A stretch of DNA of 32,000 nt from Propionibacterium freudenreichii subsp. freudenreichii. Its GTDB lineage: Bacteria > Actinomycetota > Actinomycetes > Propionibacteriales > Propionibacteriaceae. Each line of letters begins with the position of its first letter. Positions within the stretch are counted from its first letter, which is position 1. The stretch covers positions 1,320,001-1,352,000 of the forward strand of contig NZ_CP010341.1 in assembly GCF_000940845.1 (NCBI RefSeq), given 5' to 3'. Below are positions 1-22,336 of the stretch, piece after piece. The position numbers and the translations under genes were made by a program. The notes under the pieces were generated by a model. It ran no database searches and was not told the origin of the DNA. It saw only the letters and a list, made by a program, of their open reading frames with translations.

Positions 1-1152
1 CCGGCCAACACCCTGCAGGAATATCCGACCCCTGTGATCTGGGTGTTGCTGATCCCCTATCTGATCGGCTTCGGCAATGAACACGGCTATGTCATTGCGT
101 TCGTCTGCATGATGTTGGCCCTCGATGCACTGTTCTCGTGGTCGCTGTGGCACTCAGGTGGCTCCATGGGCGGGCAGGCGGTCGTCTTCTGGACACTGTT
201 CCTGGCCATGGTGGGACCCACCGCCTTCCTGCGCTTCGACCTGATCACCTCGGTGTTGGCGGGCTGGTCGATCATCTTCCTGTTGCGACGCCACAGCGCA
301 GTTGCCGGGGGCCTGACTGCGCTGGGGGCTTCGGTGAAACTCTGGCCGGCCCTGTTGTGGCCGGCGCTCCTACCGGGCCCGGCCAGGCAGAAGTTCCGGG
401 CCACGGCGGGCTTCCTGCTGACCGGGCTGGCCATGGTGGGGCTGTCGCTGCTGTACGCGGGGTGGGACCGACTGCTGTCGCCCCTCACCTGGCAGCAGGG
501 CCGTGGACTGCAGATCGAATCGGTGTGGGCGACCCTTCCGATGTTGGCCCGCACCGTCAACTCCGACAACTACGCCGTCACCCTGTCGCGGTACCAGGCC
601 TTCGAGATCTGGGGCCCGGGGGTGAACACCCTGCTCAGCGCCTCGGACATCTTCTTCGCCGGCGGGCTTGCCGTGGCGGTCCTGGCCTATCTCGTGTGGC
701 TGTGGCGCGGACACGGCCGCCTGATCGAGGCGGTCGTGCTGGTGCAGTTCGTGATCATCGTCATGATCGTGACGAACAAGACCTTTTCGCCCCAGTACAT
801 GATGTGGCTCGGCGGCCCGCAGGCGGCGGCATTCGCCGTCCTTGGCACACGCAGCCACCATGTGGAGGAGTTCTACGTCGACCGCTCCCGGCTCAACACG
901 CTGTCGATGTGGATCCTGGTGGCCACCTTCCTCACGCTGTTGGTCTATCCGATCAGCTATGACTTCCTGGTCAATGACTGGAATGTGCGCGACAGCCTGC
1001 TGAGGTTCCCGGCCACCCTGTTACTCGCCGCCCGCAACATCGTGGTGGTGATCGTCCTGATCGATGTCATCAGGTGGGTGTGGAGCTTCCTGAGGCCCCG
1101 GGCCGTGAAGGCCGTGCGACAACGCCGCCGTGGGGTCGAGGCCCCTCAGTGA
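1..1152 (+). CDS. Polytopic membrane protein, GT-C-type (GT87/DUF2029-like) glycosyltransferase paralog 1; 5' end lies outside the window
   Basis: The frame is open from base 1 (PANTLQEYPTPVIW...), so the listed 34..1152 ORF is only the internal part. The protein is strongly hydrophobic. It shares KLWPALL, SPLTWQxGRGLQIESVWATLPM and NKTFSPQYMMWL motifs with the next two genes. The family call is from memory of DUF2029/GT87 features (D..YY and EYPxP in the first loop) and has not been searched. Confidence 0.6.
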   Translation, partial: PANTLQEYPTPVIWVLLIPYLIGFGNEHGYVIAFVCMMLALDALFSWSLWHSGGSMGGQAVVFWTLFLAMVGPTAFLRFDLITSVLAGWSIIFLLRRHSAVAGGLTALGASVKLWPALLWPALLPGPARQKFRATAGFLLTGLAMVGLSLLYAGWDRLLSPLTWQQGRGLQIESVWATLPMLARTVNSDNYAVTLSRYQAFEIWGPGVNTLLSASDIFFAGGLAVAVLAYLVWLWRGHGRLIEAVVLVQFVIIVMIVTNKTFSPQYMMWLGGPQAAAFAVLGTRSHHVEEFYVDRSRLNTLSMWILVATFLTLLVYPISYDFLVNDWNVRDSLLRFPATLLLAARNIVVVIVLIDVIRWVWSFLRPRAVKAVRQRRRGVEAPQ

Positions 1153-1292
1153 GTCGCCAAGCACTTGACCGACGACCCGACTCCCGTCCACCCGCCAGCA
1201 TTCCGGTGACCCGGCCGGTGACAGCGAGTCGCCCGGAGACGGCGAGCGCCGGCGTCCGCCGGGGATGGCATCGCCGGTCCGGCATAGCGACC

Positions 1293-2588
1293 ATGCCACG
1301 TGTCCGCCCGAACGGCTGGTGGGCCGTGGTCGCCTGGATCGTGTCGCGATCCCTGATGGCGTGCCTGTTCATCAACCTGGGCAGTTACCTGCGCTCCGAT
1401 GTCATCTACTACTTCACCTCCGTGCAGGGCGCCAGTCCCATGCACCTGGCCGGGGTGCTGTCCGAGTATCCGGTACCGATCGTGTGGCTCATCCAGCTGC
1501 TGGCAGCGATCTCGGGGCCATCCGCCGATGTCTTCGTCTTCGTCTTCGCCGCAACGATGGGTGGGCTCGATGCCGCCTGTTGCCGATGGTTGTGGCGGCA
1601 CTCACCACGCGCCTGCAGCTTGTGGATCGCCTTCACCTTCCTGATCGGCCCGCTCATCTGGTTCCGCATCGACCTGGTGCCGGCCGCGTTGGTCCTGGCC
1701 GCGCTGACCATGACAACGCGGCGCCCGGCATGGTCCGGGGCGGCCGTCGCGCTGGGCGCGGCGACGAAGCTGTGGCCGGCACTGCTGATCGTTCCCCTGG
1801 CCGGCACGCGACGCAGCGCACGACGCCGCGCAGGCGGATTCCTGCTCGTGGGCGCACTGATCGGCACGGCCGTCGTGGTCAGTCAGGGTTTGGCCCGTTC
1901 GGCCTCTCCCCTCACCTGGCAGGCGACCCGGGGCCTGCAGATCGAGTCGGTGTGGGCGACGCTGCCGATGGTGCAACGGCTGGTGTCGCCCGATGACAGC
2001 TGGTCAGTGGCCGTCAGCAGTTTCCACGCCTACGAGATCTCCGGCCCGGGCGTGGCGGGATGGCTGCAGGTCTCTTCCGCCGCCACAGCCGCCCTGCTGG
2101 CGCTGACGGCGCTGCTCGGCTGGCTGATCGCCCTGGACGGCATGGGACTTCCGGGCCACCGACGCGCGCTGCCGGCCGATCCCGACCGTGACGCCCAGCG
2201 GCACGAAGCCATGCTGTGGGCATTGCTCGCAATCATCGTCGGCGTGATCGTGGCCAACAAGGCCTTCAGCCCCCAGTACATGATGTGGCTGGCGGGACCC
2301 CTGGCGATGTTGTGGGCCGAGGGCACCCGGGCCGGTTCCCGCAGGCCCGCACGGCGCGTGACCATCATGGCCCTCGCAGCGGCCGGCCTCACGCAGCTTG
2401 TCTTCCCGCTCAACTACACGGCCCTGGTCGGCGATCATCCCGGCGGGTTCGTGACCACGGTGCTGGTGGCCCGCAACCTGGTCATGGTCGGCCTGGCCCT
2501 GCACTGCACCCGACACGCCCTGCGGGCCGCGTGGCGGGTGGGCCTACGCAGCGATCCCGCCCCTGATTCCGGGAGAGAACTTGTCTGA
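1293..2588 (+). CDS. Polytopic membrane protein, GT-C-type (GT87/DUF2029-like) glycosyltransferase paralog 2
   Basis: Start chosen at ATG 1293 (MPRVRPNGWWAVVAWIV...), where the hydrophobic, paralog-alignable sequence begins. The first 73 codons of the listed ORF (from 1074) are Arg/Pro-rich noise overlapping paralog 1. Motifs: SDVIYY, EYPVPIVWL, KLWPALL, LTWQATRGLQIESVWATLPM, NKAFSPQYMMWL. Confidence 0.65.
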   Translation: MPRVRPNGWWAVVAWIVSRSLMACLFINLGSYLRSDVIYYFTSVQGASPMHLAGVLSEYPVPIVWLIQLLAAISGPSADVFVFVFAATMGGLDAACCRWLWRHSPRACSLWIAFTFLIGPLIWFRIDLVPAALVLAALTMTTRRPAWSGAAVALGAATKLWPALLIVPLAGTRRSARRRAGGFLLVGALIGTAVVVSQGLARSASPLTWQATRGLQIESVWATLPMVQRLVSPDDSWSVAVSSFHAYEISGPGVAGWLQVSSAATAALLALTALLGWLIALDGMGLPGHRRALPADPDRDAQRHEAMLWALLAIIVGVIVANKAFSPQYMMWLAGPLAMLWAEGTRAGSRRPARRVTIMALAAAGLTQLVFPLNYTALVGDHPGGFVTTVLVARNLVMVGLALHCTRHALRAAWRVGLRSDPAPDSGRELV

Positions 2589-3987
2589 GTCGAACACACC
2601 ATCCGGGTCGAACGCCCCCAGGCCCACCGCAGCGTCCGCCGACAACGGGTCCACGACGGGTGTGACCGTCACGATCGGCCCACCCGCCATCGCGGACGCC
2701 CGTACCGGGAGCTGGGTGGCACGCTTCCCCCTGCTGGTGGCCTTCTGGGCGCTGTCCCGCGTGGTCATGGCCTGCATCTTCATGACCGACCTGTGCAGCT
2801 ACATCCGCAACGACGTGCTCTACTACGGCACGGCGGTCGCCAGCTCACCGGTCCCCCTGCTCGACCGCATGACCAATGTGCTCGACGAGTACCCGACGCC
2901 GATCGTCGGGTTCCTCCAGGTGATCAACGCGTTGGCGGGCGGCTCCACGTCCACCTTCGTCTCCGTTTTCGTCCTCGTGCTCTGCCTGGCAGACGGTTTC
3001 GCCGTCGCTGCCCTGTTCTTCCGTGAATCGCCGCGAGCCGGCTGGGTCTGGGCGGCCGCGGGCCTGCTACTGGGGCCGCTGCTGTGGTTCCGCCTAGACC
3101 TGTTGCCGGCGCTGGCCGTGCTCGGGGCACTGCACTGGATGGATCGTCGCCCCAGGCTGGCCGGGGTGATGATCGCCCTTGGTGCCGCCCTGAAACTGTG
3201 GCCGGCCCTGCTGATCATTCCCATGATGGGCCGGGGCCGGCTGGCCCGCTCCCGAACGCTGGGCTTCGTGGTGGCCGGGCTGGTGCTCGGTCTCGGGTCG
3301 CTGCTGACGCAGGGCTGGGCACGCTCCGCCTCGCCACTGACCTACCAGGGGGATCGTGGCCTCCAGATCGAATCGGTGTGGGCCACGGTGCCGATGGTGC
3401 GGCGCGTCATCTCCGGTGATTCGGGGCTCACGGTCTTCTTCAGCCAGTACAAGGCCTATGAGGTGTCGGGCCCGGGCGTGGCCGGCTGGATCCAGGTCAG
3501 CGACCTGCTGCTCGTGGTGATGATCGTCGCCACCGTGGCGCTGGGATGGTTGATCGGCCTGCGCGGTGTCGGCCTGCGCGGGCATCGATGGGCTGCACCC
3601 GGTGAGAAGGACCTGGGGGCCATCGACTGGGCGATCCAGTTGTCGCTGCTGGCCATCATCTGCGGGGTCATCGTGGCGAACAAGACGCTCAGCCCGCAGT
3701 ACCTGATGTGGCTGTTCCCCTCGTTGGCGATCATCACGGCCCGCGCCCGTGGCGAGCGCCAACGCCGGGTCGTGCGGCGCATCCTGGCGTTCGCGGCGAC
3801 GTCGCTGGCCCTGACGCCCTGGGTGTTCCCGCTGGGCTACTCCGGGTTGATCTCCTCCACACCGAATGCAGGGGTTACCTGGCTGCTCGTGCTGCGCAAT
3901 CTCGGACTCGTTACGCTGACCGCATATTCATGGTTTGAGGCGTGGAGGGCGGCTGTTCGCAGCGGGGTTTTCGAACCCGAACTGTAG
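2581..3987 (+). CDS. Polytopic membrane protein, GT-C-type (GT87/DUF2029-like) glycosyltransferase paralog 3
   Basis: TTG start at 2581 overlaps the paralog 2 stop (2586-2588) and follows GGGAGAG at 2571-2577. Motifs: NDVLYY, EYPTPIVGFL, KLWPALL, LTYQGDRGLQIESVWATVPM, NKTLSPQYLMWL. The start codon is uncertain; the N-terminal ~45 aa are not hydrophobic. Confidence 0.65.
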   Translation: MSESNTPSGSNAPRPTAASADNGSTTGVTVTIGPPAIADARTGSWVARFPLLVAFWALSRVVMACIFMTDLCSYIRNDVLYYGTAVASSPVPLLDRMTNVLDEYPTPIVGFLQVINALAGGSTSTFVSVFVLVLCLADGFAVAALFFRESPRAGWVWAAAGLLLGPLLWFRLDLLPALAVLGALHWMDRRPRLAGVMIALGAALKLWPALLIIPMMGRGRLARSRTLGFVVAGLVLGLGSLLTQGWARSASPLTYQGDRGLQIESVWATVPMVRRVISGDSGLTVFFSQYKAYEVSGPGVAGWIQVSDLLLVVMIVATVALGWLIGLRGVGLRGHRWAAPGEKDLGAIDWAIQLSLLAIICGVIVANKTLSPQYLMWLFPSLAIITARARGERQRRVVRRILAFAATSLALTPWVFPLGYSGLISSTPNAGVTWLLVLRNLGLVTLTAYSWFEAWRAAVRSGVFEPEL

Positions 3988-15707: not shown

Positions 15708-17441
15708 TCAGCGGGGCCCGGGCGCTCCCATGGCGCCACCCATCGTGTTGCCGGTCGACTGATTCGCCGTGACCGTGGTGGCGGAGCCACCATTGACGCT
15801 CACCAGGTAGCTTGAGCCGGCGCTGATCGCCGAGGAGCTGAAGACGATGTTCCCGGTTGCCTTGGCCACGGTGTAGCTGGCGATCTGGGTGCCGTCGGTG
15901 GTGGAGATCGTCACGCTCTGCCCGGCACTGGCCGTGAGTTCGCTCTGGAGCCAGGCCTGTGACGAATCCGTGTCGGGGCTCTCGGCCATGCCCGAGCTCC
16001 CTGCTGCGAACAGCGTTCCGCCGCTGATCCTCAGCGTGCCACCGGTGTCCAGGGCACCATTGCCCGAGTCGGTCGGTCCGTTCACGACGATGGTGCCGCC
16101 GCTGATCGTCATGGCGCCATTGGAATCCAGTCCATCGCCGCCCGCGTCGACCGTGATCGCCCCGCCGGTGATCACCATCGTGGAGTTCGACGCCGACCCG
16201 GCGCCGGGATCGTCGGCCTCGCCGGAGCCGTCGGAGGCATTGATGCCATCATCGGAGCTCGTGATGTTGATCGTCGCGGCGTTGAGGGTGATGGCGTTGG
16301 ACTCCAGGCCCTCATAGCTCGCGGTCACGTCGATGGTGCCGCCGTTGGTGGTCAGGGCGTTGTCGGCGTGGATGGCGTCATCGCCGGTGGACAGCTTGAG
16401 CGTGCCGCCGTCGATCTGCACGGTGTCGTTGCTGTGCACCGCGTCGTCGGACGAGGTGATGGTGTCGGTCCCATCGCTGATGACCAGCTGCGCCCCGGCC
16501 TTGATGCCCTTGGTGGACGCGGCATCGGTGCTGTCGCTGGGCCTGCTGGACGAACCGCCGGCGGTCGTGATCGTCAAGGAGGCGCCCGTCTGGACGAAAT
16601 CGCTGGTGACGTCCACGCCGTCACCCGCGGTCGCATTGACCGCGATGGTGCCGTTCTCGATGTCCACATAGCCACGCGTGGAGTCCTGCGAGTTGTCCGA
16701 CTTGATGCCGTCCCCGCCGCTGGTCACGTTGATGGTGCCATCCTCCACGATCACATAGTCCTTGCCCCTGATGCCGTCATCAATGGCCTGGACCCGAATC
16801 GTGCCCGAGACGATCACCAGGCCGTCGGTGGAGGCGATGCCGTCGTTGGTCCTCCCGTCGACGCTCAGGGAACCCGTGCCGGCGATCGTCAGGTCGGCAC
16901 GCGAATACAGCGCCGCGTTGGCCGCGCCGTCGGCGCTCGTGTCATAGCCGGATCCGTCGGTCAGCGTGTTCTGCGATCCGTCGGCAAGGATCACGTTCAC
17001 CTCGTCGGCAGCCTGGATGTCGATCGCCGGGCCGCTGCTCGACGTGATGTCGGCGCCGTCGAGGATGATGCGGGTCTCGCCGGAGGCTGTTGAGTTCACC
17101 ACGAGCCGTCCGTCGGTGAGCTGCCCCGAGACCTTGTAGGTGCCCGGCTCGGTGATGGTGACGGTTGAACCATCGATGCCCACGCCCGGGCCGCTGGCGG
17201 ACGCGGAGCTCCCCGACAGGGTCACCGTCACCACCGAGGATGCCTCATAGTCAAGGTCGCTCGCCTTGTAGTGCGAGTCCTTGTTGTCGGCCAACACCGA
17301 TTGCGCACTCGACGAGACGCTGGTGGCCGCGGCCTGCGCGGAGGCGGTCGTGGTGGGGCTGGACGCGGTGGTCGCGCCGCAGCCGGTCAGCGTGGCCGCG
17401 ACGGCGAGCGCGGCCAGTCTCTTCTGCCATGACAAGTTCAT
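15708..17441 (-). CDS. Surface lipoprotein with Cthe_2159-type beta-helix carbohydrate-binding repeats (DUF4353/PF14262-like)
   Basis: Signal peptide MNLSWQKRLAALAVAATLTG|C with a lipobox, followed by a Ser/Thr/Ala linker. More than 10 short coils follow, carrying DGI/DDGI/DDAI/GDG motifs (NDGIAS, DDGIRG, GDGIKS, DDAVHS, DDAIHA, DDGINA, GDGLDS) and SYEGLES. The start overlaps the stop of the upstream VTC gene (ATGA at 17438-17441). Confidence 0.75.
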   Translation of the reverse strand: MNLSWQKRLAALAVAATLTGCGATTASSPTTTASAQAAATSVSSSAQSVLADNKDSHYKASDLDYEASSVVTVTLSGSSASASGPGVGIDGSTVTITEPGTYKVSGQLTDGRLVVNSTASGETRIILDGADITSSSGPAIDIQAADEVNVILADGSQNTLTDGSGYDTSADGAANAALYSRADLTIAGTGSLSVDGRTNDGIASTDGLVIVSGTIRVQAIDDGIRGKDYVIVEDGTINVTSGGDGIKSDNSQDSTRGYVDIENGTIAVNATAGDGVDVTSDFVQTGASLTITTAGGSSSRPSDSTDAASTKGIKAGAQLVISDGTDTITSSDDAVHSNDTVQIDGGTLKLSTGDDAIHADNALTTNGGTIDVTASYEGLESNAITLNAATINITSSDDGINASDGSGEADDPGAGSASNSTMVITGGAITVDAGGDGLDSNGAMTISGGTIVVNGPTDSGNGALDTGGTLRISGGTLFAAGSSGMAESPDTDSSQAWLQSELTASAGQSVTISTTDGTQIASYTVAKATGNIVFSSSAISAGSSYLVSVNGGSATTVTANQSTGNTMGGAMGAPGPR

Positions 17442-18249
17442 GATGATTCGCTCCTCATTGTGGCGGCCGCGGTCTCAGGGCGGCCTTCGCGTAGTCGTGA
17501 CCGGAGATGTCCGATGGTCGAATGCCACCGGTTGTGGGGCAGCCCGGGCTCAAGGATGGCCAGGCCGGTGGCGAACTTGCTGAAACGGTGGGGCCGAACC
17601 CCGATCGACCACAGCAGGTGGTCCACCCGGCCCGGTGCCATGCCCGCCGACTTCGTCTCCACCACCGTCAGCTCACCCAGCCGCACCGCGCGGACATCAT
17701 CGGCCGAGGTCCAGATGAGTCTGCGGTCGAGGGTGACCCGCGTCCCGCTGCCCGGTTCGACCAGGGTGGTCCGCAGATAGGACGTGTTGAGCCGGGGCGC
17801 CAGGGCATCCAGCGGGACAGACGGCATGCCGCACACGGACAATGCCCGGTGCATCTCGTGGCGGTCCCCGGCGCTCCACCGGCCACGCTCGGCGACGTCG
17901 ATCTGCAGGCGTTGCTTGACGGTCCGTTCCCCACGACAGGTCTTCACCTCGAGCCACCGCATGCCGCTGTCGAGGTAGTCGCGCTCGCGGATCTTCCATC
18001 GTCGCCGGCGTCCCCGCGCCGAGGCGAGGTAGCTGTCCTGGCCGGGGGTGTCGAAGTAGACCGACACATAGCGGAACTCCCGGATGCCTGCGATCGTGAG
18101 GACCCTGCTGTCAGCGGGCAGGGCCCGAGGAAGGTCCGCACCTCGGCCGGGGTCGCCAGGTATTTCCTGTCCACCCGCGTCTGCAGGGCGGCGGTGCGGT
18201 TCAGCTCGTCGAGTCCGATATCCGCCAGATCGGTGATCGTCCTGCTCAT
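17438..18249 (-). pseudogene. VTC-domain (CYTH/triphosphate-tunnel, polyphosphate-polymerase-like) protein gene interrupted by a 1-nt frameshift
   Basis: ATG 18249 gives MSRTITDLADIGLDELNRTAALQTRVDRKYLATPAEVRTFL (frame of ORF 17944..18249). The homologous sequence then continues in the -1 frame (ORF 17438..18484) as ALPADSRVLTIAGIREFRYVSVYFDT, RRRWKIRERDY, WLEVK, TVKQR, VVETK and SKF. The span is 812 nt (3n-1). It is either a real pseudogene or an assembly error. Confidence 0.75.
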
Positions 18250-18881
18250 GCGACGGCCTCACGCGCACCGGGAACCTCACGCTCCGCACAGGGCACCGGG
18301 GCACGACCATCCACCGCGATGTCCGGGGCGCCGCCAGCCCGTGATCCGGGCCGGAAGCGCACCTCCACCAATGTCGTGTCGTTGACGAAGTCGAGGCGCT
18401 GCACGGACACCGACAGGATCCGCCCGCCCAGGCGCTCCCCCAGCGCCGCGCGCAGCTGCGCCGCATCGGGATACGCCCGATCAAGGGCCACCACCTGGCG
18501 CTGCATCCCGCGCCCGATCCACCGGGAGTCGCTGATGCAGGTGACCGCCACGATCAACGCCATGAGGGGCACCGAATACCCCAGTGGCACGTCCACTCCG
18601 CCGAGCAGGCCCAGCGCCAGCGCGCTGAAATAGTAGGCGGTCTCGATCTGGCTCAGCTCCTCCGAACGGAGCCGGATGATCGACAACACCCCGAACAGGC
18701 CCAGGCCGAGCCCGGCTGCAACACTGCTCACCGACAAGGCCGTGGAAACTGCCAGCACGCCGACGTTGACGCTCAGATAGGCCACGACCATGTCGCGTCG
18801 GTGGTGGCGCGGCAGGTAGACGGCGAAGGTCAGGATGACGATCATCAAGGCGTCGGCGCCAAGGGCAACAAGGTCGGTCAT
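18246..18881 (-). CDS. DUF4956-like small polytopic membrane protein
   Basis: 211 aa. It has several hydrophobic helices and the GLFGVLSIIRLRSEELSQIETAYYF motif I associate with DUF4956, plus a soluble C-terminal ~90 aa. AGGAG lies 7 nt upstream of ATG 18881. Its stop overlaps the VTC start (ATGA 18246-18249). Confidence 0.7.
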   Translation of the reverse strand: MTDLVALGADALMIVILTFAVYLPRHHRRDMVVAYLSVNVGVLAVSTALSVSSVAAGLGLGLFGVLSIIRLRSEELSQIETAYYFSALALGLLGGVDVPLGYSVPLMALIVAVTCISDSRWIGRGMQRQVVALDRAYPDAAQLRAALGERLGGRILSVSVQRLDFVNDTTLVEVRFRPGSRAGGAPDIAVDGRAPVPCAEREVPGAREAVA

Positions 18882-19037
18882 GGGTGGCTCCTGATTCGGA
18901 ATGGATGACGTTGAATCAACCCGCCGCCGCTGTCGGTTCTCTGTGCTGGAATCGGCATGTGCCTATGCACCTGACGTGCCAGAGGAAACCCAGCGAATCC
19001 CCTGCCGGTGCACATTTGTCGCGGGAAGTGTGTGGCC

Positions 19038-19985
19038 ATGACTCACTTACCCAGCAGGTTCTCCCGGCGCGCGGTCCTCACCGGGGCAGGCGTCGCCGTC
19101 GCCGGTGGCGGCGCGGCATGGGCCGCGGAGAGATTCCTCATTCCCCATGTGGAGAACTCGGACGTCGCGGCTGCCGAGGCCGCAGCCAGCGCCTCCAATT
19201 CATCCAGCACCGGACAGATGGCGGCCGACCGGCGCGAGATCGGCACCAACTACTACCGCAACGGACAGACCCAGCTGACCATCGCCAACCACAGCTCCGG
19301 CAACGGCTCCGATGCGCTGGCCTGGTTCGTCGCCGATCTGCGCATGGGCGATGCCACGGTGCTTCGATCGGCCTTCGCCAACAACCAGTTCGGTGAGAAC
19401 ATCACCCAGGACCCCTCCACGATCGCCACGGCGCATGATGCCGTCTTCGCCGTGAACGGGGACTACTACGGATTCCGTGATGACGGCATTGAGGTGCGCA
19501 ATGGCGTCGCCTGGCGCGACAAGGGCACCCGGCAGGGTCTGTCGCTGTACCGCGACGGCGCGGTACGCCTGTATGACGAGACCGCGACGAACGCGGCACA
19601 GTTGGTGTCCGAGGGTGTCTGGAACACCCTGTCGTTCGGTCCCGGCGTGGTCGCCGACTCGCAGGTCGTCGCGGGAATCGACCAGGTGGAGGTCGATACC
19701 AATGTCGGCAACCACTCCATCCAGGGGGACCAGCCCCGCACGGGGATCGGATACCTGGCCGATGGTCACCTCGCGCTGCTGGTCGTGGACGGGCGCAGCG
19801 AGGGATACTCGCGCGGCGTCACGCTGCCCGAATTCGCGCAGATGTTCGTGGACCTCGGTGCCCGGACCGCCTACAACCTGGACGGCGGTGGCTCGTCGGT
19901 CATGTACTTCAACGGGTCGCTGGTCAACAACCCATTGGGCACAGGCCGGGAACGCGGCGTATCCGACATCCTCTACCTGGCGTGA
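19038..19985 (+). CDS. Tat-secreted phosphodiester glycosidase family protein (NAGPA/DUF2233-like)
   Basis: 315 aa from ATG 19038. It has a twin-arginine signal (MTHLPSRFSRRAVLTGAGVAVAGGGAAWA). FAVNGDYYGFRDDGIEVRNG and AYNLDGGGSSVMYFNG are typical of the family. GGGAAG RBS at 19023-19028. Confidence 0.78.
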   Translation: MTHLPSRFSRRAVLTGAGVAVAGGGAAWAAERFLIPHVENSDVAAAEAAASASNSSSTGQMAADRREIGTNYYRNGQTQLTIANHSSGNGSDALAWFVADLRMGDATVLRSAFANNQFGENITQDPSTIATAHDAVFAVNGDYYGFRDDGIEVRNGVAWRDKGTRQGLSLYRDGAVRLYDETATNAAQLVSEGVWNTLSFGPGVVADSQVVAGIDQVEVDTNVGNHSIQGDQPRTGIGYLADGHLALLVVDGRSEGYSRGVTLPEFAQMFVDLGARTAYNLDGGGSSVMYFNGSLVNNPLGTGRERGVSDILYLA

Positions 19986-19994
19986 GGGAGCGTC

Positions 19995-21153
19995 ATGCCC
20001 GTTCTCGTACCCAGCTTCCAGCCGGATCGCCGGCTTGTAGAACTCGTGGGTGACCTGCAGGCACATCCCGACACGAGCGACATCCTGATCGTCAACGACG
20101 GCTCCGGACCGGACTACTCCGCGCTGTTCGCCGCGGCTGCGGCGGCCGACGCCACCGTCATCGGCTATCCCGACAACCGGGGTAAGGGACACGCGCTGCG
20201 GGCGGGCTTCGCCTGGGCGATCGCCAACCGCCCCGGGGAGCCCGTGGTGTGCGCCGACTCGGACGGGCAGCACGCCGCGGCGGACATCAGGGCCGTGGCC
20301 AGGGCCACGGCCCTGATGTCCGCAGGCCTGGTCCTCGGCACGAGGAACTTCGGCTCTCCCCGCGCCCAGCCGGATGCCGAGGGGATCCCGTGGCGCAGCC
20401 GCCTGGGTAACAGGGCGACGGCCCGGCTCTTCGCGTGGGTGACCGGCCTCCACCTGGGCGACACCCAAACGGGCCTTCGGGGGTTGCCCCGCGCCCATGC
20501 TCGGCTGGCTGTGCACCGTCCCCGGCGAGCGCTTCGACTATGAGTTCAGGGTGCTGCTCGAGGCCCACCAAGCGGGCTGGCCCATTGTCGAGATCCCGAT
20601 CACCACCGTCTATTCGCAGCACAATGAATCGTCGCATTTCAGACCAATTCGTGACTCGGCACGCATCTATGCCCCGTTGGTCGGCCACATTGCGCGCTCG
20701 GGGTCCGGGCGTCTGCTGGTCTTTGGCGCCTCCAGCTTCGGGGCCTTCCTGGTGGACCTGGTGCTCCTGCTCCATGCGACCCTCGGGAACCTCCTGGTGT
20801 CCGTGGTGGGCGCCAGACTGGTCAGCTCCGCCGCTAACTACCTGGTGAACGATCGGATCGTCTTCGCCCACGGTGTGGGACGACGCACAACCCGAACCTC
20901 CCTGCCCCGATATGCGCTACTGGCGGGCGTACTGCTGGGTGCCAACTACGGCCTCATGTGGCTTGGCACGGTGCCGCTGCACCTACCGTTGGTGCTCACT
21001 AAATTAGCCACAGAGCTGGGCCTGTTCGCCGTCAGCTACGTGGTGCAGCGCACGCTGGTCTTCATGGGACGCCGAGCACGCACCACGCCCCCCACCTCTG
21101 GACCGGTGAAGGACGTGGTCGCTCGGCGAACCGACGTGCGCGTCAGCGAATGA
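19995..21153 (+). pseudogene. Bifunctional GT2 glycosyltransferase / GtrA-like membrane module gene interrupted by a 1-nt frameshift
   Basis: ORF 19995..20543 carries the N-terminal GT2 half (VPSF, IVNDGSGPDY, DNRGKGHAL, CADSDGQH, DTQTGLRG). ORF 20497..21153, in the +1 frame, continues the same catalytic domain (MLGWLCTVPGERFDYEFRVLLEA, IVEIPITTVY, SSHFRPIRDS) and then a 4-helix GtrA-like tail. The span is 1159 nt (3n+1). The shift lies between 20479 and 20497, a region with G5, C4 and C3 runs. Confidence 0.8.
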
Positions 21154-22336
21154 CGCGGCAGCTGATGGTGTTGGGCACCTCGGCGAGGTCTTCCTCCCAG
21201 CCGGAGGTGGCAGCGGTCACGTCAGTGACGGCGTAGCCCACATCCCCCCGCGTGCTCAGCGCCTGGAAGGCGATGTTCGCGTCATGGCCCGACAACACGG
21301 AGTTCAGCTGGGCCATCACGCCGGGCACATTGCGGTGGATGTGGAGCACCCGTACGCCGTGGCGCGGAGGCGTGTTGACTTCGGGCAGGTTGACGCTCAT
21401 GGAGGTTGAACCGGTGTCCATGTATTCCTGCAGCTTGTTGGCGACATAGCGGCCGATGTCCACCTGTGCTTCCTGGGTGGAACCACCGACGTGCGGGGTG
21501 AGGGTCACATTGGGGATCCCCTGCAGCGGCGACACGAAGCGCTCCCCCGCGGACTTCGGCTCGGTGGGGAACACATCAACCGCAGCACCGGCCAGGTGCC
21601 CGGACTTCAGGTTCTCGGCCAGGGCCTGGTCGTCGAAGACAAAGCCACGGGACAGGTTGAGGAACAAGGAGCGGGGACGCATCGCCGCGAACTGGTCGGC
21701 TCCGAAGAACCCGGCGTTCGACTTGCGCCCGTCGACGTGCAGGGTGACGGTCTCGGCCTTGCTCAGCAGTTCGTCGAGGCTGTCGCACCGCTGCGCGTTG
21801 CCCATGGCCAGCCGATCCTGGATGTCGTAGAAGTAGACGCGCATACCGAAGGCCTCGGCGAGCACGGACAGCTGGGAGCCGATGTTGCCGTAGCCGACGA
21901 TGCCCAGGCGGCGTCCACGGACCTCGTGCGAACCGGTGGCGGACTTGCTCCAGATGCCCTCATGCATCTGGGCGTTGCGATCGGTGAGGTGGCGCGCCAT
22001 CGCGACGATCTCGGCCATGGCCAGCTCGACCACTGAGCGGGTATTGGAATAGGGCGCGTTGAACACCGCCACGCCCTTGGTGGCGCACTGCGGTAGGGCA
22101 ATCTGGTTCGTGCCGATGCAGAAGGCACCGATCGCATTGAGGCCGGCGGGGATCCTGCGCAGCACATTGTCCGTCACGTGGGTGCGGGATCGGATGCCCA
22201 GCAGGTTCACCCCGTCCAGAGCCGAGACCAGCTCTTCCTCACTCAGGGCACCGGCGCGTGTCTCGACGTCATAACCGGCGGCGGTGAGGATGCGGGTGGC
22301 TTCGGGGTGGATGTTCTCGAGCAGGAGTGCCTTCAC
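21143..22336 (-). CDS. serA: D-3-phosphoglycerate dehydrogenase (E. coli-type, with C-terminal ACT domain)
   Basis: Collinear with E. coli SerA throughout, including GIRSRTH, CIGTNQ, FNAPYSNTRSVVEL, GIVGYGNIGSQL, HLAGAAVDVFP, TPHVGGSTQEAQ and HIHRNVPGV. Start taken as GTG 22336 (VKALLLENIH). The listed TTG at 22363 is also possible. Confidence 0.92.
   Translation of the reverse strand: MKALLLENIHPEATRILTAAGYDVETRAGALSEEELVSALDGVNLLGIRSRTHVTDNVLRRIPAGLNAIGAFCIGTNQIALPQCATKGVAVFNAPYSNTRSVVELAMAEIVAMARHLTDRNAQMHEGIWSKSATGSHEVRGRRLGIVGYGNIGSQLSVLAEAFGMRVYFYDIQDRLAMGNAQRCDSLDELLSKAETVTLHVDGRKSNAGFFGADQFAAMRPRSLFLNLSRGFVFDDQALAENLKSGHLAGAAVDVFPTEPKSAGERFVSPLQGIPNVTLTPHVGGSTQEAQVDIGRYVANKLQEYMDTGSTSMSVNLPEVNTPPRHGVRVLHIHRNVPGVMAQLNSVLSGHDANIAFQALSTRGDVGYAVTDVTAATSGWEEDLAEVPNTISCRVIR

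Follow-up and report, generated by a model that had tools for sequence, protein, structure and literature searches.

Gene content of the locus

We analysed a window of 32,000 nucleotides from the genome of Propionibacterium freudenreichii subsp. freudenreichii (NZ_CP010341.1, positions 1,320,001 to 1,352,000 of the forward strand). Our subject is the interval 18882–21153, which comprises a 156-bp intergenic region and a plus-strand pair of genes, here called the right arm, for a NAGPA-type phosphodiester glycosidase and a GT2/GtrA glycosyltransferase. Three minus-strand genes, the left arm, lead away from the other side of the intergenic region and encode a DUF4956 membrane protein, a VTC-domain protein and a Cthe_2159-family lipoprotein. 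In this strain the locus is present as a pseudogenised version of a conserved five-gene module. Its features, in window coordinates, are the following.

15708–17441, minus strand: Cthe_2159-family beta-helix lipoprotein of 577 amino acids (aa); PF14262, E 6e-94; last gene of the left arm
17438–18249, minus strand: VTC-domain gene (TTM, polyphosphate-polymerase-like), a pseudogene in this strain; PF09359, E 4e-21, in the downstream frame
18124–18126: C-run with 1 bp missing (C3 here, C4 in intact strains), the cause of the VTC frameshift
18246–18881, minus strand: DUF4956 membrane protein, 211 aa; PF16316, E 6e-57; first gene of the left arm
18882–19037: divergent intergenic region, 156 bp
19038–19985, plus strand: NAGPA-type phosphodiester glycosidase of 315 aa whose N-terminus is a twin-arginine signal or anchor; PF09992
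19995–20543, plus strand: 5′ fragment of GT2/GtrA, 182 aa, the GT-A core as far as DTQTGLRG plus 19 out-of-frame codons; PF00535, E 1e-8
20479–20483, plus strand: G5 run with one G more than the intact allele (G4), giving a +1 frameshift
20497–21153, plus strand: 3′ fragment of GT2/GtrA, a 218-aa open reading frame (ORF) from an internal ATG, with the interface region and, as membrane module, the four GtrA/DPMS helices; PF04138, E 1.5e-11
Across the frameshift: junction peptide of full-length GT2/GtrA, ...TGLRGCPAPMLGW...

The three genes of the left arm run leftward from 18881 with overlapping stop and start codons, the start of the Cthe_2159 gene overlapping the VTC stop by 4 nt. The start codon of DUF4956 is the CAT at 18879–18881 on the minus strand and the ATG of the NAGPA gene lies at 19038, so the arms diverge across 156 bp, as an earlier reading of this DNA from its letters alone (the sequence-only reading) had stated. 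The same reading had placed the two plus-strand genes 9 nt apart with a GAGGGAG ribosome-binding site, and this is what is found at 19983–19997, where NAGPA stop, ribosome-binding site and GT2 start read TGAGGGAGCGTCATG. Pfam matches were obtained for all five proteins; NCBIfam gave none for four of the five. The NAGPA protein of the window is present in identical form on 79 contigs, including LT576034.1.

Linkage of the two arms in Actinomycetota

Genomes were scanned with an alignment of the NAGPA-like protein, one genome being taken per species. The 80 loci recovered belong to Propionibacteriales, Micrococcales, Actinomycetales, Micromonosporales, Geodermatophilales and other orders. Wherever both genes are present (78 loci), GT2/GtrA lies 3′ of the NAGPA gene and on its strand, at a median gap of 12 nt, and in 76 of these 78 one ORF spans both tblastn matches of GT2/GtrA. 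The two genes are also adjacent in Paenibacillus. Judged from these comparisons the right arm would be a fixed two-gene cassette, in which the gene for a predicted exported NAGPA-type glycosidase has, about 10 nt beyond its end, that for a DPMS-type glycosyltransferase with its own GtrA module.

Of the 68 loci with sufficient flanking sequence, 47 have the triplet DUF4956-VTC-Cthe_2159 beside this pair. Three layouts occur among the linked loci: the arms are divergent as in the window in 9, the triplet lies upstream on the same strand in 18, and it lies downstream in 20. In most of the downstream collinear loci the gap between the arms, estimated by tblastn, is 83–170 nt; in L010 it is 9 nt, which is consistent with a single operon there. 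When metagenomes were searched in reverse from VTC, the NAGPA and GT2/GtrA pair was present in about 21 of the 25 loci that extend far enough. DUF4956 always adjoined VTC, and in the VTC-seeded loci one to four Cthe_2159 genes came after them. Because the linkage is mutual and survives rearrangement, a functional tie explains it better than inherited synteny does. These comparisons support the view that in many actinobacteria the two arms are one conserved, though not obligatory, unit, and the suggestion in the sequence-only reading that they act as one is borne out as far as linkage in relatives is concerned, from both sides and in three gene orders.

The arms could instead be independent genes that are frequent neighbours, with the NAGPA and GT2/GtrA pair acting on a wall glycopolymer and the triplet serving as a separate phosphate or polyphosphate device, and with no substrate in common. 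The pair does occur without the triplet within 10 kb in 21 of the 68 genomes, as well as in Paenibacillus, and Cellulomonas has the triplet alone, which shows that the arms can work apart. Firmicutes carry VTC-DUF4956 together with CotH and pel genes, and in Rothia about 0.9 kb without a convincing gene between the arms suggests separate promoters. Independent neighbours would nevertheless have to account for a linkage that is seen from either side, in three gene orders, in several orders of Actinomycetota and amid differing flanks, and for the short gaps between collinear arms, above all that in L010. We therefore regard this explanation as unlikely and retain the single conserved unit.

No further gene family recurs beside the module in the 80 loci, and the flanking genes are otherwise not conserved. 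Likewise, no GT-C family recurs beside the NAGPA and GT2/GtrA pair in these loci, and neither CotH kinase nor pel genes appear in the Pfam lists of the window neighbourhood or of the related loci. Genes found between the arms in L106 were considered as parts of the module and rejected, as they are unrelated housekeeping genes (GlyRS, DUF885, HAD hydrolase). The commonest extra neighbour, in a minority of loci, is a two-component system: a sensor histidine kinase and a response regulator adjoin the module in eight loci (L027, L045, L047, L052, L079, L080, L081 and L085) from Microbacterium, Actinoplanes, Herbiconiux, Specibacter and Arthrobacter, and these are possible regulators of the module.

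Two variants of the left arm were also seen. The lone triplets of Cellulomonas (L194, CP002665.1, and L195) are flanked by several ECF sigma/anti-sigma-like pairs and a gene for a proton-pumping pyrophosphatase. Two to four tandem Cthe_2159 paralogues lie between VTC and the NAGPA pair in L118, L122, L129–L132, L138, L147, L160, L163, L167 and L173; these metagenome loci with several copies are Rothia-like in GC content (53–58%), and the window has a single copy. No paper on the five-gene module was found; in the literature collection that was searched, none joins 'phosphodiester glycosidase' with GtrA, and DUF4956 is mentioned in only five papers.

Family assignment of the five proteins

The NAGPA-like protein matches PF09992 over profile positions 2–168 of 169 (E 9e-34; 117.5 bits against a cut-off of 25). 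Its AlphaFold model has a pTM of 0.71, and the top 15 fold matches in the PDB are all NAGPA or DUF2233 proteins (probability 1.00, E about 1e-10, 265–275 aligned columns). The motifs FAVNGDYYG and NLDGGGSS begin at residues 137 and 280, D282-G-G-G-S286 is invariant in 18 homologues, and E305-R306-G307 is invariant too. In human NAGPA the DGGGS loop (residues 286–290) binds the sugar-phosphate (PMC13474241). R306 of the invariant E-R-G sits 24 residues past the Asp; the alignments with vertebrate NAGPA stopped short of human R316, the arginine that binds phosphate. Vertebrate NAGPA and bacterial DUF2233 structures (6pku, 6pky, 3ohg) share the fold of the catalytic core, at a TM-score of 0.5–0.6, and the DGGGS loop with the present protein. 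Sequence identity is only about 20%, however, and the vertebrate enzyme has a signal peptide, a propeptide and an EGF stalk where the present protein has a twin-arginine N-terminus.

This N-terminus reads MTHLPSRFSRRAVLTGAGVAVAGGGAAWAA, with S-R-R-A-V-L at residues 9–14, and the RR with two hydrophobic residues is kept in 17 of the 17 aligned homologues that have an N-terminus. The twin-arginine signal and the NAGPA motifs named in the sequence-only reading are thus both present. A-W-A is present too; since the residues beyond it are also conserved (AWALDRFVIxHVE), an uncleaved anchor is possible, and the sequence would fit an uncleaved signal anchor and cleavage at AWA equally well.

The GT2/GtrA profile aligns end to end with the P. 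furiosus DPMS 5mlz (E 5e-15, positions 3–338 of 361), and ArnC and GtrB are the next matches, all three being polyprenyl-phosphate glycosyltransferases. D88 and D90 of the DSD motif are invariant, as is DTQTGLR. These alignments support a place for the protein in the class of polyprenyl-phosphate sugar synthases, the type that had been supposed for its GT2 domain. PpgS, the polyprenyl-phospho-GalNAc synthase (equivalog NF058614), is the best NCBIfam match, at 59 bits against a cut-off of 370, so that the present protein is related to this family and not a member. With 5mlz it shares the GT-A core, the interface region and the four-helix membrane domain; unlike 5mlz it is bacterial, is always paired with a NAGPA-like gene, and is split by a frameshift in the window.

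For the VTC protein the profile matches Vtc4 (3g3q, E 2.5e-8). Its invariant K29 aligns with the Lys of TKY, at about residue 200 of Vtc4, and K86, R88, R90, E101, K103, K112, R114, Y158, R160 and R171, also invariant, lie within the aligned tunnel stretch. Profiles were needed for these assignments: phmmer searches of the PDB with the single GT2/GtrA and VTC sequences returned nothing. The protein resembles yeast VTC (Vtc4 tunnel domain 3g3q, 8i6v) in its TTM tunnel domain with conserved Lys and Arg residues and in being encoded beside a membrane protein. It differs in that Pfam finds the VTC domain only, with no SPX and no Vtc-type transmembrane domain, and in that the membrane partner is DUF4956. 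To our knowledge, no bacterial VTC member has been shown to synthesise polyphosphate.

The model of the DUF4956 protein (pLDDT 79) has five helices and a C-terminal beta-alpha-beta-beta domain. Weak matches of the C-terminal domain are only to ACT- or ferredoxin-like domains, and no sequence match to MgtC appeared even at E up to 10. The Cthe_2159 protein carries a lipobox, LTGC, at residues 18–21. The left arm would, on these assignments, encode a membrane protein made of helices plus a small domain of cytoplasmic type (DUF4956), a VTC/TTM enzyme resembling polyphosphate polymerases and a Cthe_2159 beta-helix lipoprotein. As for compartments, the GT2 domain and the VTC protein have no signal sequence, DUF4956 and the GtrA module are predicted in the membrane, and the NAGPA-like protein (RR signal) and the Cthe_2159 protein (lipobox) outside it.

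Frameshift alleles in P. freudenreichii

The sequence-only reading had described the second plus-strand product as a fusion of GT2 and GtrA. Both domains are present, and in other strains and species they do form one polypeptide. In the window, however, the GT2 part (19995–20543) and the GtrA part (20497–21153) lie in different frames and no single ORF joins them. With the intact 398-aa orthologue from a related Propionibacterium (L009) as tblastn query, the 5′ fragment was covered and the break was located at ...DTQTGLRG|CPAPMLGWL; its cause is an additional G in the run at 20479–20483. The GC content at third codon positions shifts frame at this run: in the upstream frame it falls from 0.83–0.93 to 0.44–0.51, and in the downstream frame it is 0.78–0.81 past the run.

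The G5 run is present in 21 sequences of P. freudenreichii that are independent of one another; 13 others have G4. A lesion common to 21 independent sequences is not a sequencing error of the window. A single-nucleotide polymorphism (SNP) at 20493, 10 nt 3′ of the run, is A in all 13 G4 sequences and G in all 21 G5 sequences. Since each allele is linked to its own base, the frameshift allele probably arose once, and phase variation at the run was rejected. The G5 allele is found on differing flanking haplotypes, which can be explained by recombination; this fits the nested tracts in the 3′ half of the gene that are described below.

We also considered that the frameshift was fixed in the species, as it was present at eight of eight places examined. 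This was rejected: the sample came from a look-up of the exact NAGPA protein and was biased, and a search with the repaired protein returned an intact 'bifunctional glycosyltransferase family 2/GtrA' of 385–387 aa from many P. freudenreichii strains. In the intact alleles P0259 and P0241 the 3′ fragment is continuous with the 5′ fragment, and P. freudenreichii loci exist in which all five genes are intact. The 182-aa product is found on about 97 contigs, and elsewhere in the species the gene carries different truncations, with products of 215 aa and 303 aa.

The second lesion of the window lies in the partner arm. A 1-bp deletion in the C-run at 18124–18126 (C3 in place of C4) shifts the VTC frame after codon 42, which leaves the N-terminal 42 codons in another frame; the run was assessed in an alignment of nine strains and counted in 29 loci. 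VTC is intact at 270 aa in most strains (more than 217 contigs), and the truncated product occurs on 47 contigs. Both frameshift alleles therefore segregate in P. freudenreichii beside fully intact loci. In the strain of the window the module is genetically broken, a +1 frameshift splitting GT2/GtrA and a −1 frameshift truncating VTC, and the five-gene set is probably inactive. With both of these genes frameshifted, 'all five products', to which the sequence-only reading had assigned a common activity on phosphate-containing polymers or carriers, are not made here.

The split GT2/GtrA gene could nevertheless function, either because the 182-aa and 218-aa polypeptides assemble or because of a +1 ribosomal slip at GGG-U (20481–20484), in which case the right arm would be active. 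An ATG lies 14 nt past the G-run and the G5 run could act as a weak Shine-Dalgarno sequence, the frameshift allele is as common as the contig count for its 182-aa product indicates, and neither half-ORF has acquired a second lesion among the 21 sequences. The 218-aa ORF also shows a between-strain ratio of non-synonymous to synonymous divergence (dN/dS) of 0.26–0.41 in frame as against 0.65–2.0 out of frame, but this divergence is probably older than the frameshift, as judged from the nested recombination-like tracts. The break lies inside a region that is continuous in 5mlz, in 76 of the 78 loci and in the intact proteins of the pair, and the 215-aa and 303-aa truncations of other strains are what is expected of a dispensable gene. 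UUG makes up 10.8% of Leu codons and is not rare, so that there is no 'hungry codon', and the constant linkage of G5 to its own SNP base indicates a single mutational origin and not a tuned or reversible site. Because a continuous fold is interrupted and differing truncations are found elsewhere, we rate activity of the split gene as very unlikely and treat the GT2/GtrA gene of the window as probably inactivated.

Further lesions in partner genes were seen on the G5 background: an additional G truncates DUF4956 in L008, a 119-bp tandem duplication lies at the Cthe_2159 start in L007/L182, and Cthe_2159 has a 1-bp deletion in L184. In all, such lesions are present at 4 of 12 G5 haplotype places and at 0 of 11 G4 places (p = 0.09), which is suggestive of decay following a first hit and not significant. 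An apparent truncation of NAGPA in L191 was rejected, as the break is a run of N. The duplication in L007/L182, at the equivalent of window position 17399, takes in the end of VTC as well as the Cthe_2159 start, and the called protein is 613 aa long as against 577 aa.

Strain-to-strain variation is much higher in the GtrA half of the gene (window 20548–21260) than elsewhere in the locus: synonymous divergence (dS) is as high as 0.25, and one strain carries an insertion of 6 bp there. The divergent tracts of this half are nested, have a common right-hand end near the stop of the gene and look like recombination imports.

A proposed function for the module

On balance, we lean towards reading the interval as the right arm of a five-gene cell-envelope module that is conserved in Actinomycetota and broken in this strain, and that would work as follows. 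GT2/GtrA would attach a sugar to polyprenyl phosphate on the inner side of the membrane, and the product, a lipid-linked sugar and as such a glycosyl phosphodiester, would reach the outer face. There the NAGPA-like enzyme, which its twin-arginine N-terminus would keep outside, may break the sugar-O-P bond and pass the sugar to an acceptor or to water, by which polyprenyl phosphate would be regenerated. The partner polymer or acceptor would most likely come from the VTC-DUF4956-Cthe_2159 arm, possibly as a phosphate-rich chain that is made in the cytoplasm, passes through DUF4956 and is held at the surface by the lipoprotein. We propose a lipid-linked sugar as the substrate of the NAGPA-like enzyme because its constant neighbour makes a glycosyl phosphodiester, the bond that NAGPA cleaves, and because no GT-C gene is nearby.

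In Gtr-type three-component systems a GtrA protein, a GtrB protein and a GT-C transferase act together, examples being CsbB/YfhO of B. subtilis and PpgS/Rv3632/Rv3779 of M. tuberculosis. The present genes are like these in that a GT2 enzyme makes a polyprenyl-phosphate sugar, in the four-helix module of GtrA type and in the use of the sugar outside the membrane. They are unlike them in that GT2 and GtrA form one polypeptide, that no GT-C gene recurs beside them in the 80 loci, and that a NAGPA-type glycosidase is the invariant extracytoplasmic partner. The NAGPA-like enzyme might thus fill the place of the GT-C transferase. Such a pair, in which a NAGPA-type enzyme instead of a GT-C transferase goes with the synthase of a lipid-linked sugar, gives a concrete, testable idea of what bacterial NAGPA homologues do.

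The NAGPA-like enzyme may instead be an 'uncovering' or remodelling hydrolase that acts on sugar-1-phosphate diesters of a surface polymer and not on a lipid donor, GT2/GtrA merely supplying a decoration. The one proven activity of the family, removal of GlcNAc from GlcNAc-1-P-6-Man, is of this kind, and both the DGGGS loop and the fold are conserved. Glycosyl-1-phosphate wall polymers have been reported from a good number of the host genera. The module in the 80 loci contains no enzyme that builds sugar-1-phosphate diesters, however, neither a phosphoglycosyl transferase nor one of Stealth type, and the sole partner conserved at about 10 nt makes a polyprenyl-phosphate sugar, itself a glycosyl phosphodiester. 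We consider an uncovering role somewhat unlikely and prefer the lipid-linked sugar as substrate.

A DUF4956-VTC pair tied to an exopolysaccharide system is also known from the pel accessory genes of Gram-positive bacteria (CotH, VTC, there called 'polyphosphate polymerase', DUF4956 and DUF4832; bioRxiv 10.1101/768473 and PMC12345266). The present module differs from that set in having no CotH kinase or pel genes, in its partners Cthe_2159, NAGPA and GT2/GtrA, and in its Actinomycetota hosts. The sole experimental precedent comes from that other partner set: in S. intermedius, mutants of DUF4956 (SIR_1592) and CotH (SIR_1594), genes that neighbour a VTC gene, are reported to show less Pel-dependent aggregation.

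Several points weigh against the scheme that we favour. Pair and triplet each occur without the other, in 21 of the 68 genomes and in Cellulomonas respectively, and the VTC-DUF4956 pair of Firmicutes goes with CotH and pel genes and not with NAGPA. Inference is all that stands behind the substrate assigned to the NAGPA-like enzyme, the sugar and a possible polyphosphate product. The DUF4956 model has no significant match in the PDB (best E 0.085), which makes a channel role a guess. Secondary lesions are more frequent on the G5 background, but not to a statistically significant degree. Finally, the passages drawn on from the S. intermedius study state the reduced aggregation for SIR_1592 and SIR_1594, not for the VTC gene SIR_1593.

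The polyphosphate decoration put forward in the sequence-only reading is speculation. In its fullest form the idea would be a new surface polymer, a phosphate chain made by a Vtc4-like enzyme, exported through DUF4956, held by the lipoprotein, and glycosylated, capped or anchored by the NAGPA-type enzyme by means of a polyprenyl-phosphate sugar; we think this highly doubtful. If true, no VTC-type polyphosphate exporter would have been known in bacteria before it, nor any extracytoplasmic transfer of a sugar from a lipid carrier that dispenses with a GT-C enzyme. The tie to a Vtc4-like enzyme raises the question of a second, membrane-coupled bacterial route to polyphosphate.

As a species used in food and as a probiotic, P. 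freudenreichii has immunomodulatory properties that depend in part on the composition of its surface. Natural controls for the module are available from culture collections, namely strains with all five genes intact, strains with GT2/GtrA alone broken, and strains with both GT2/GtrA and VTC broken, as here. Examples of G4 are the CEI29612 and CEP26863 types, and examples of G5 beside an intact VTC are CP030279-like strains and the ARO11881/2 type.

The intergenic region and neighbouring genes

The 156-bp region between the arms had been taken for a shared control region. As a general feature of the module this fails, since only 9 of the 47 linked loci are divergent, and within the 156 bp no sigma-70-like promoter, terminator, repeat or Rfam element was found. 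Most species have the arms in tandem, so that the arms may plausibly be co-expressed, but what is conserved is not the divergent promoter region. The block CTGTnnGnTnnCTGTG, at about 18929–18948, is partly conserved among three Propionibacterium relatives (the window, L009 and L012) and could be an operator or promoter element.

Three consecutive paralogues at 34–3987 of the window have weak matches to GT87 (PF09594; E 8e-8 to 7e-5), the third below the cut-off. The sequence-only reading could show no link between these GT-C paralogues and the interval, and the same holds here: they lie 15 kb off, and no homologue recurs near the module in the other genomes. In L092 (1844–2659), from a P. freudenreichii strain with an intact module, the adjoining inositol monophosphatase gene is split into ORFs of 167 aa and 69 aa, which is another strain-specific frameshift in this species.

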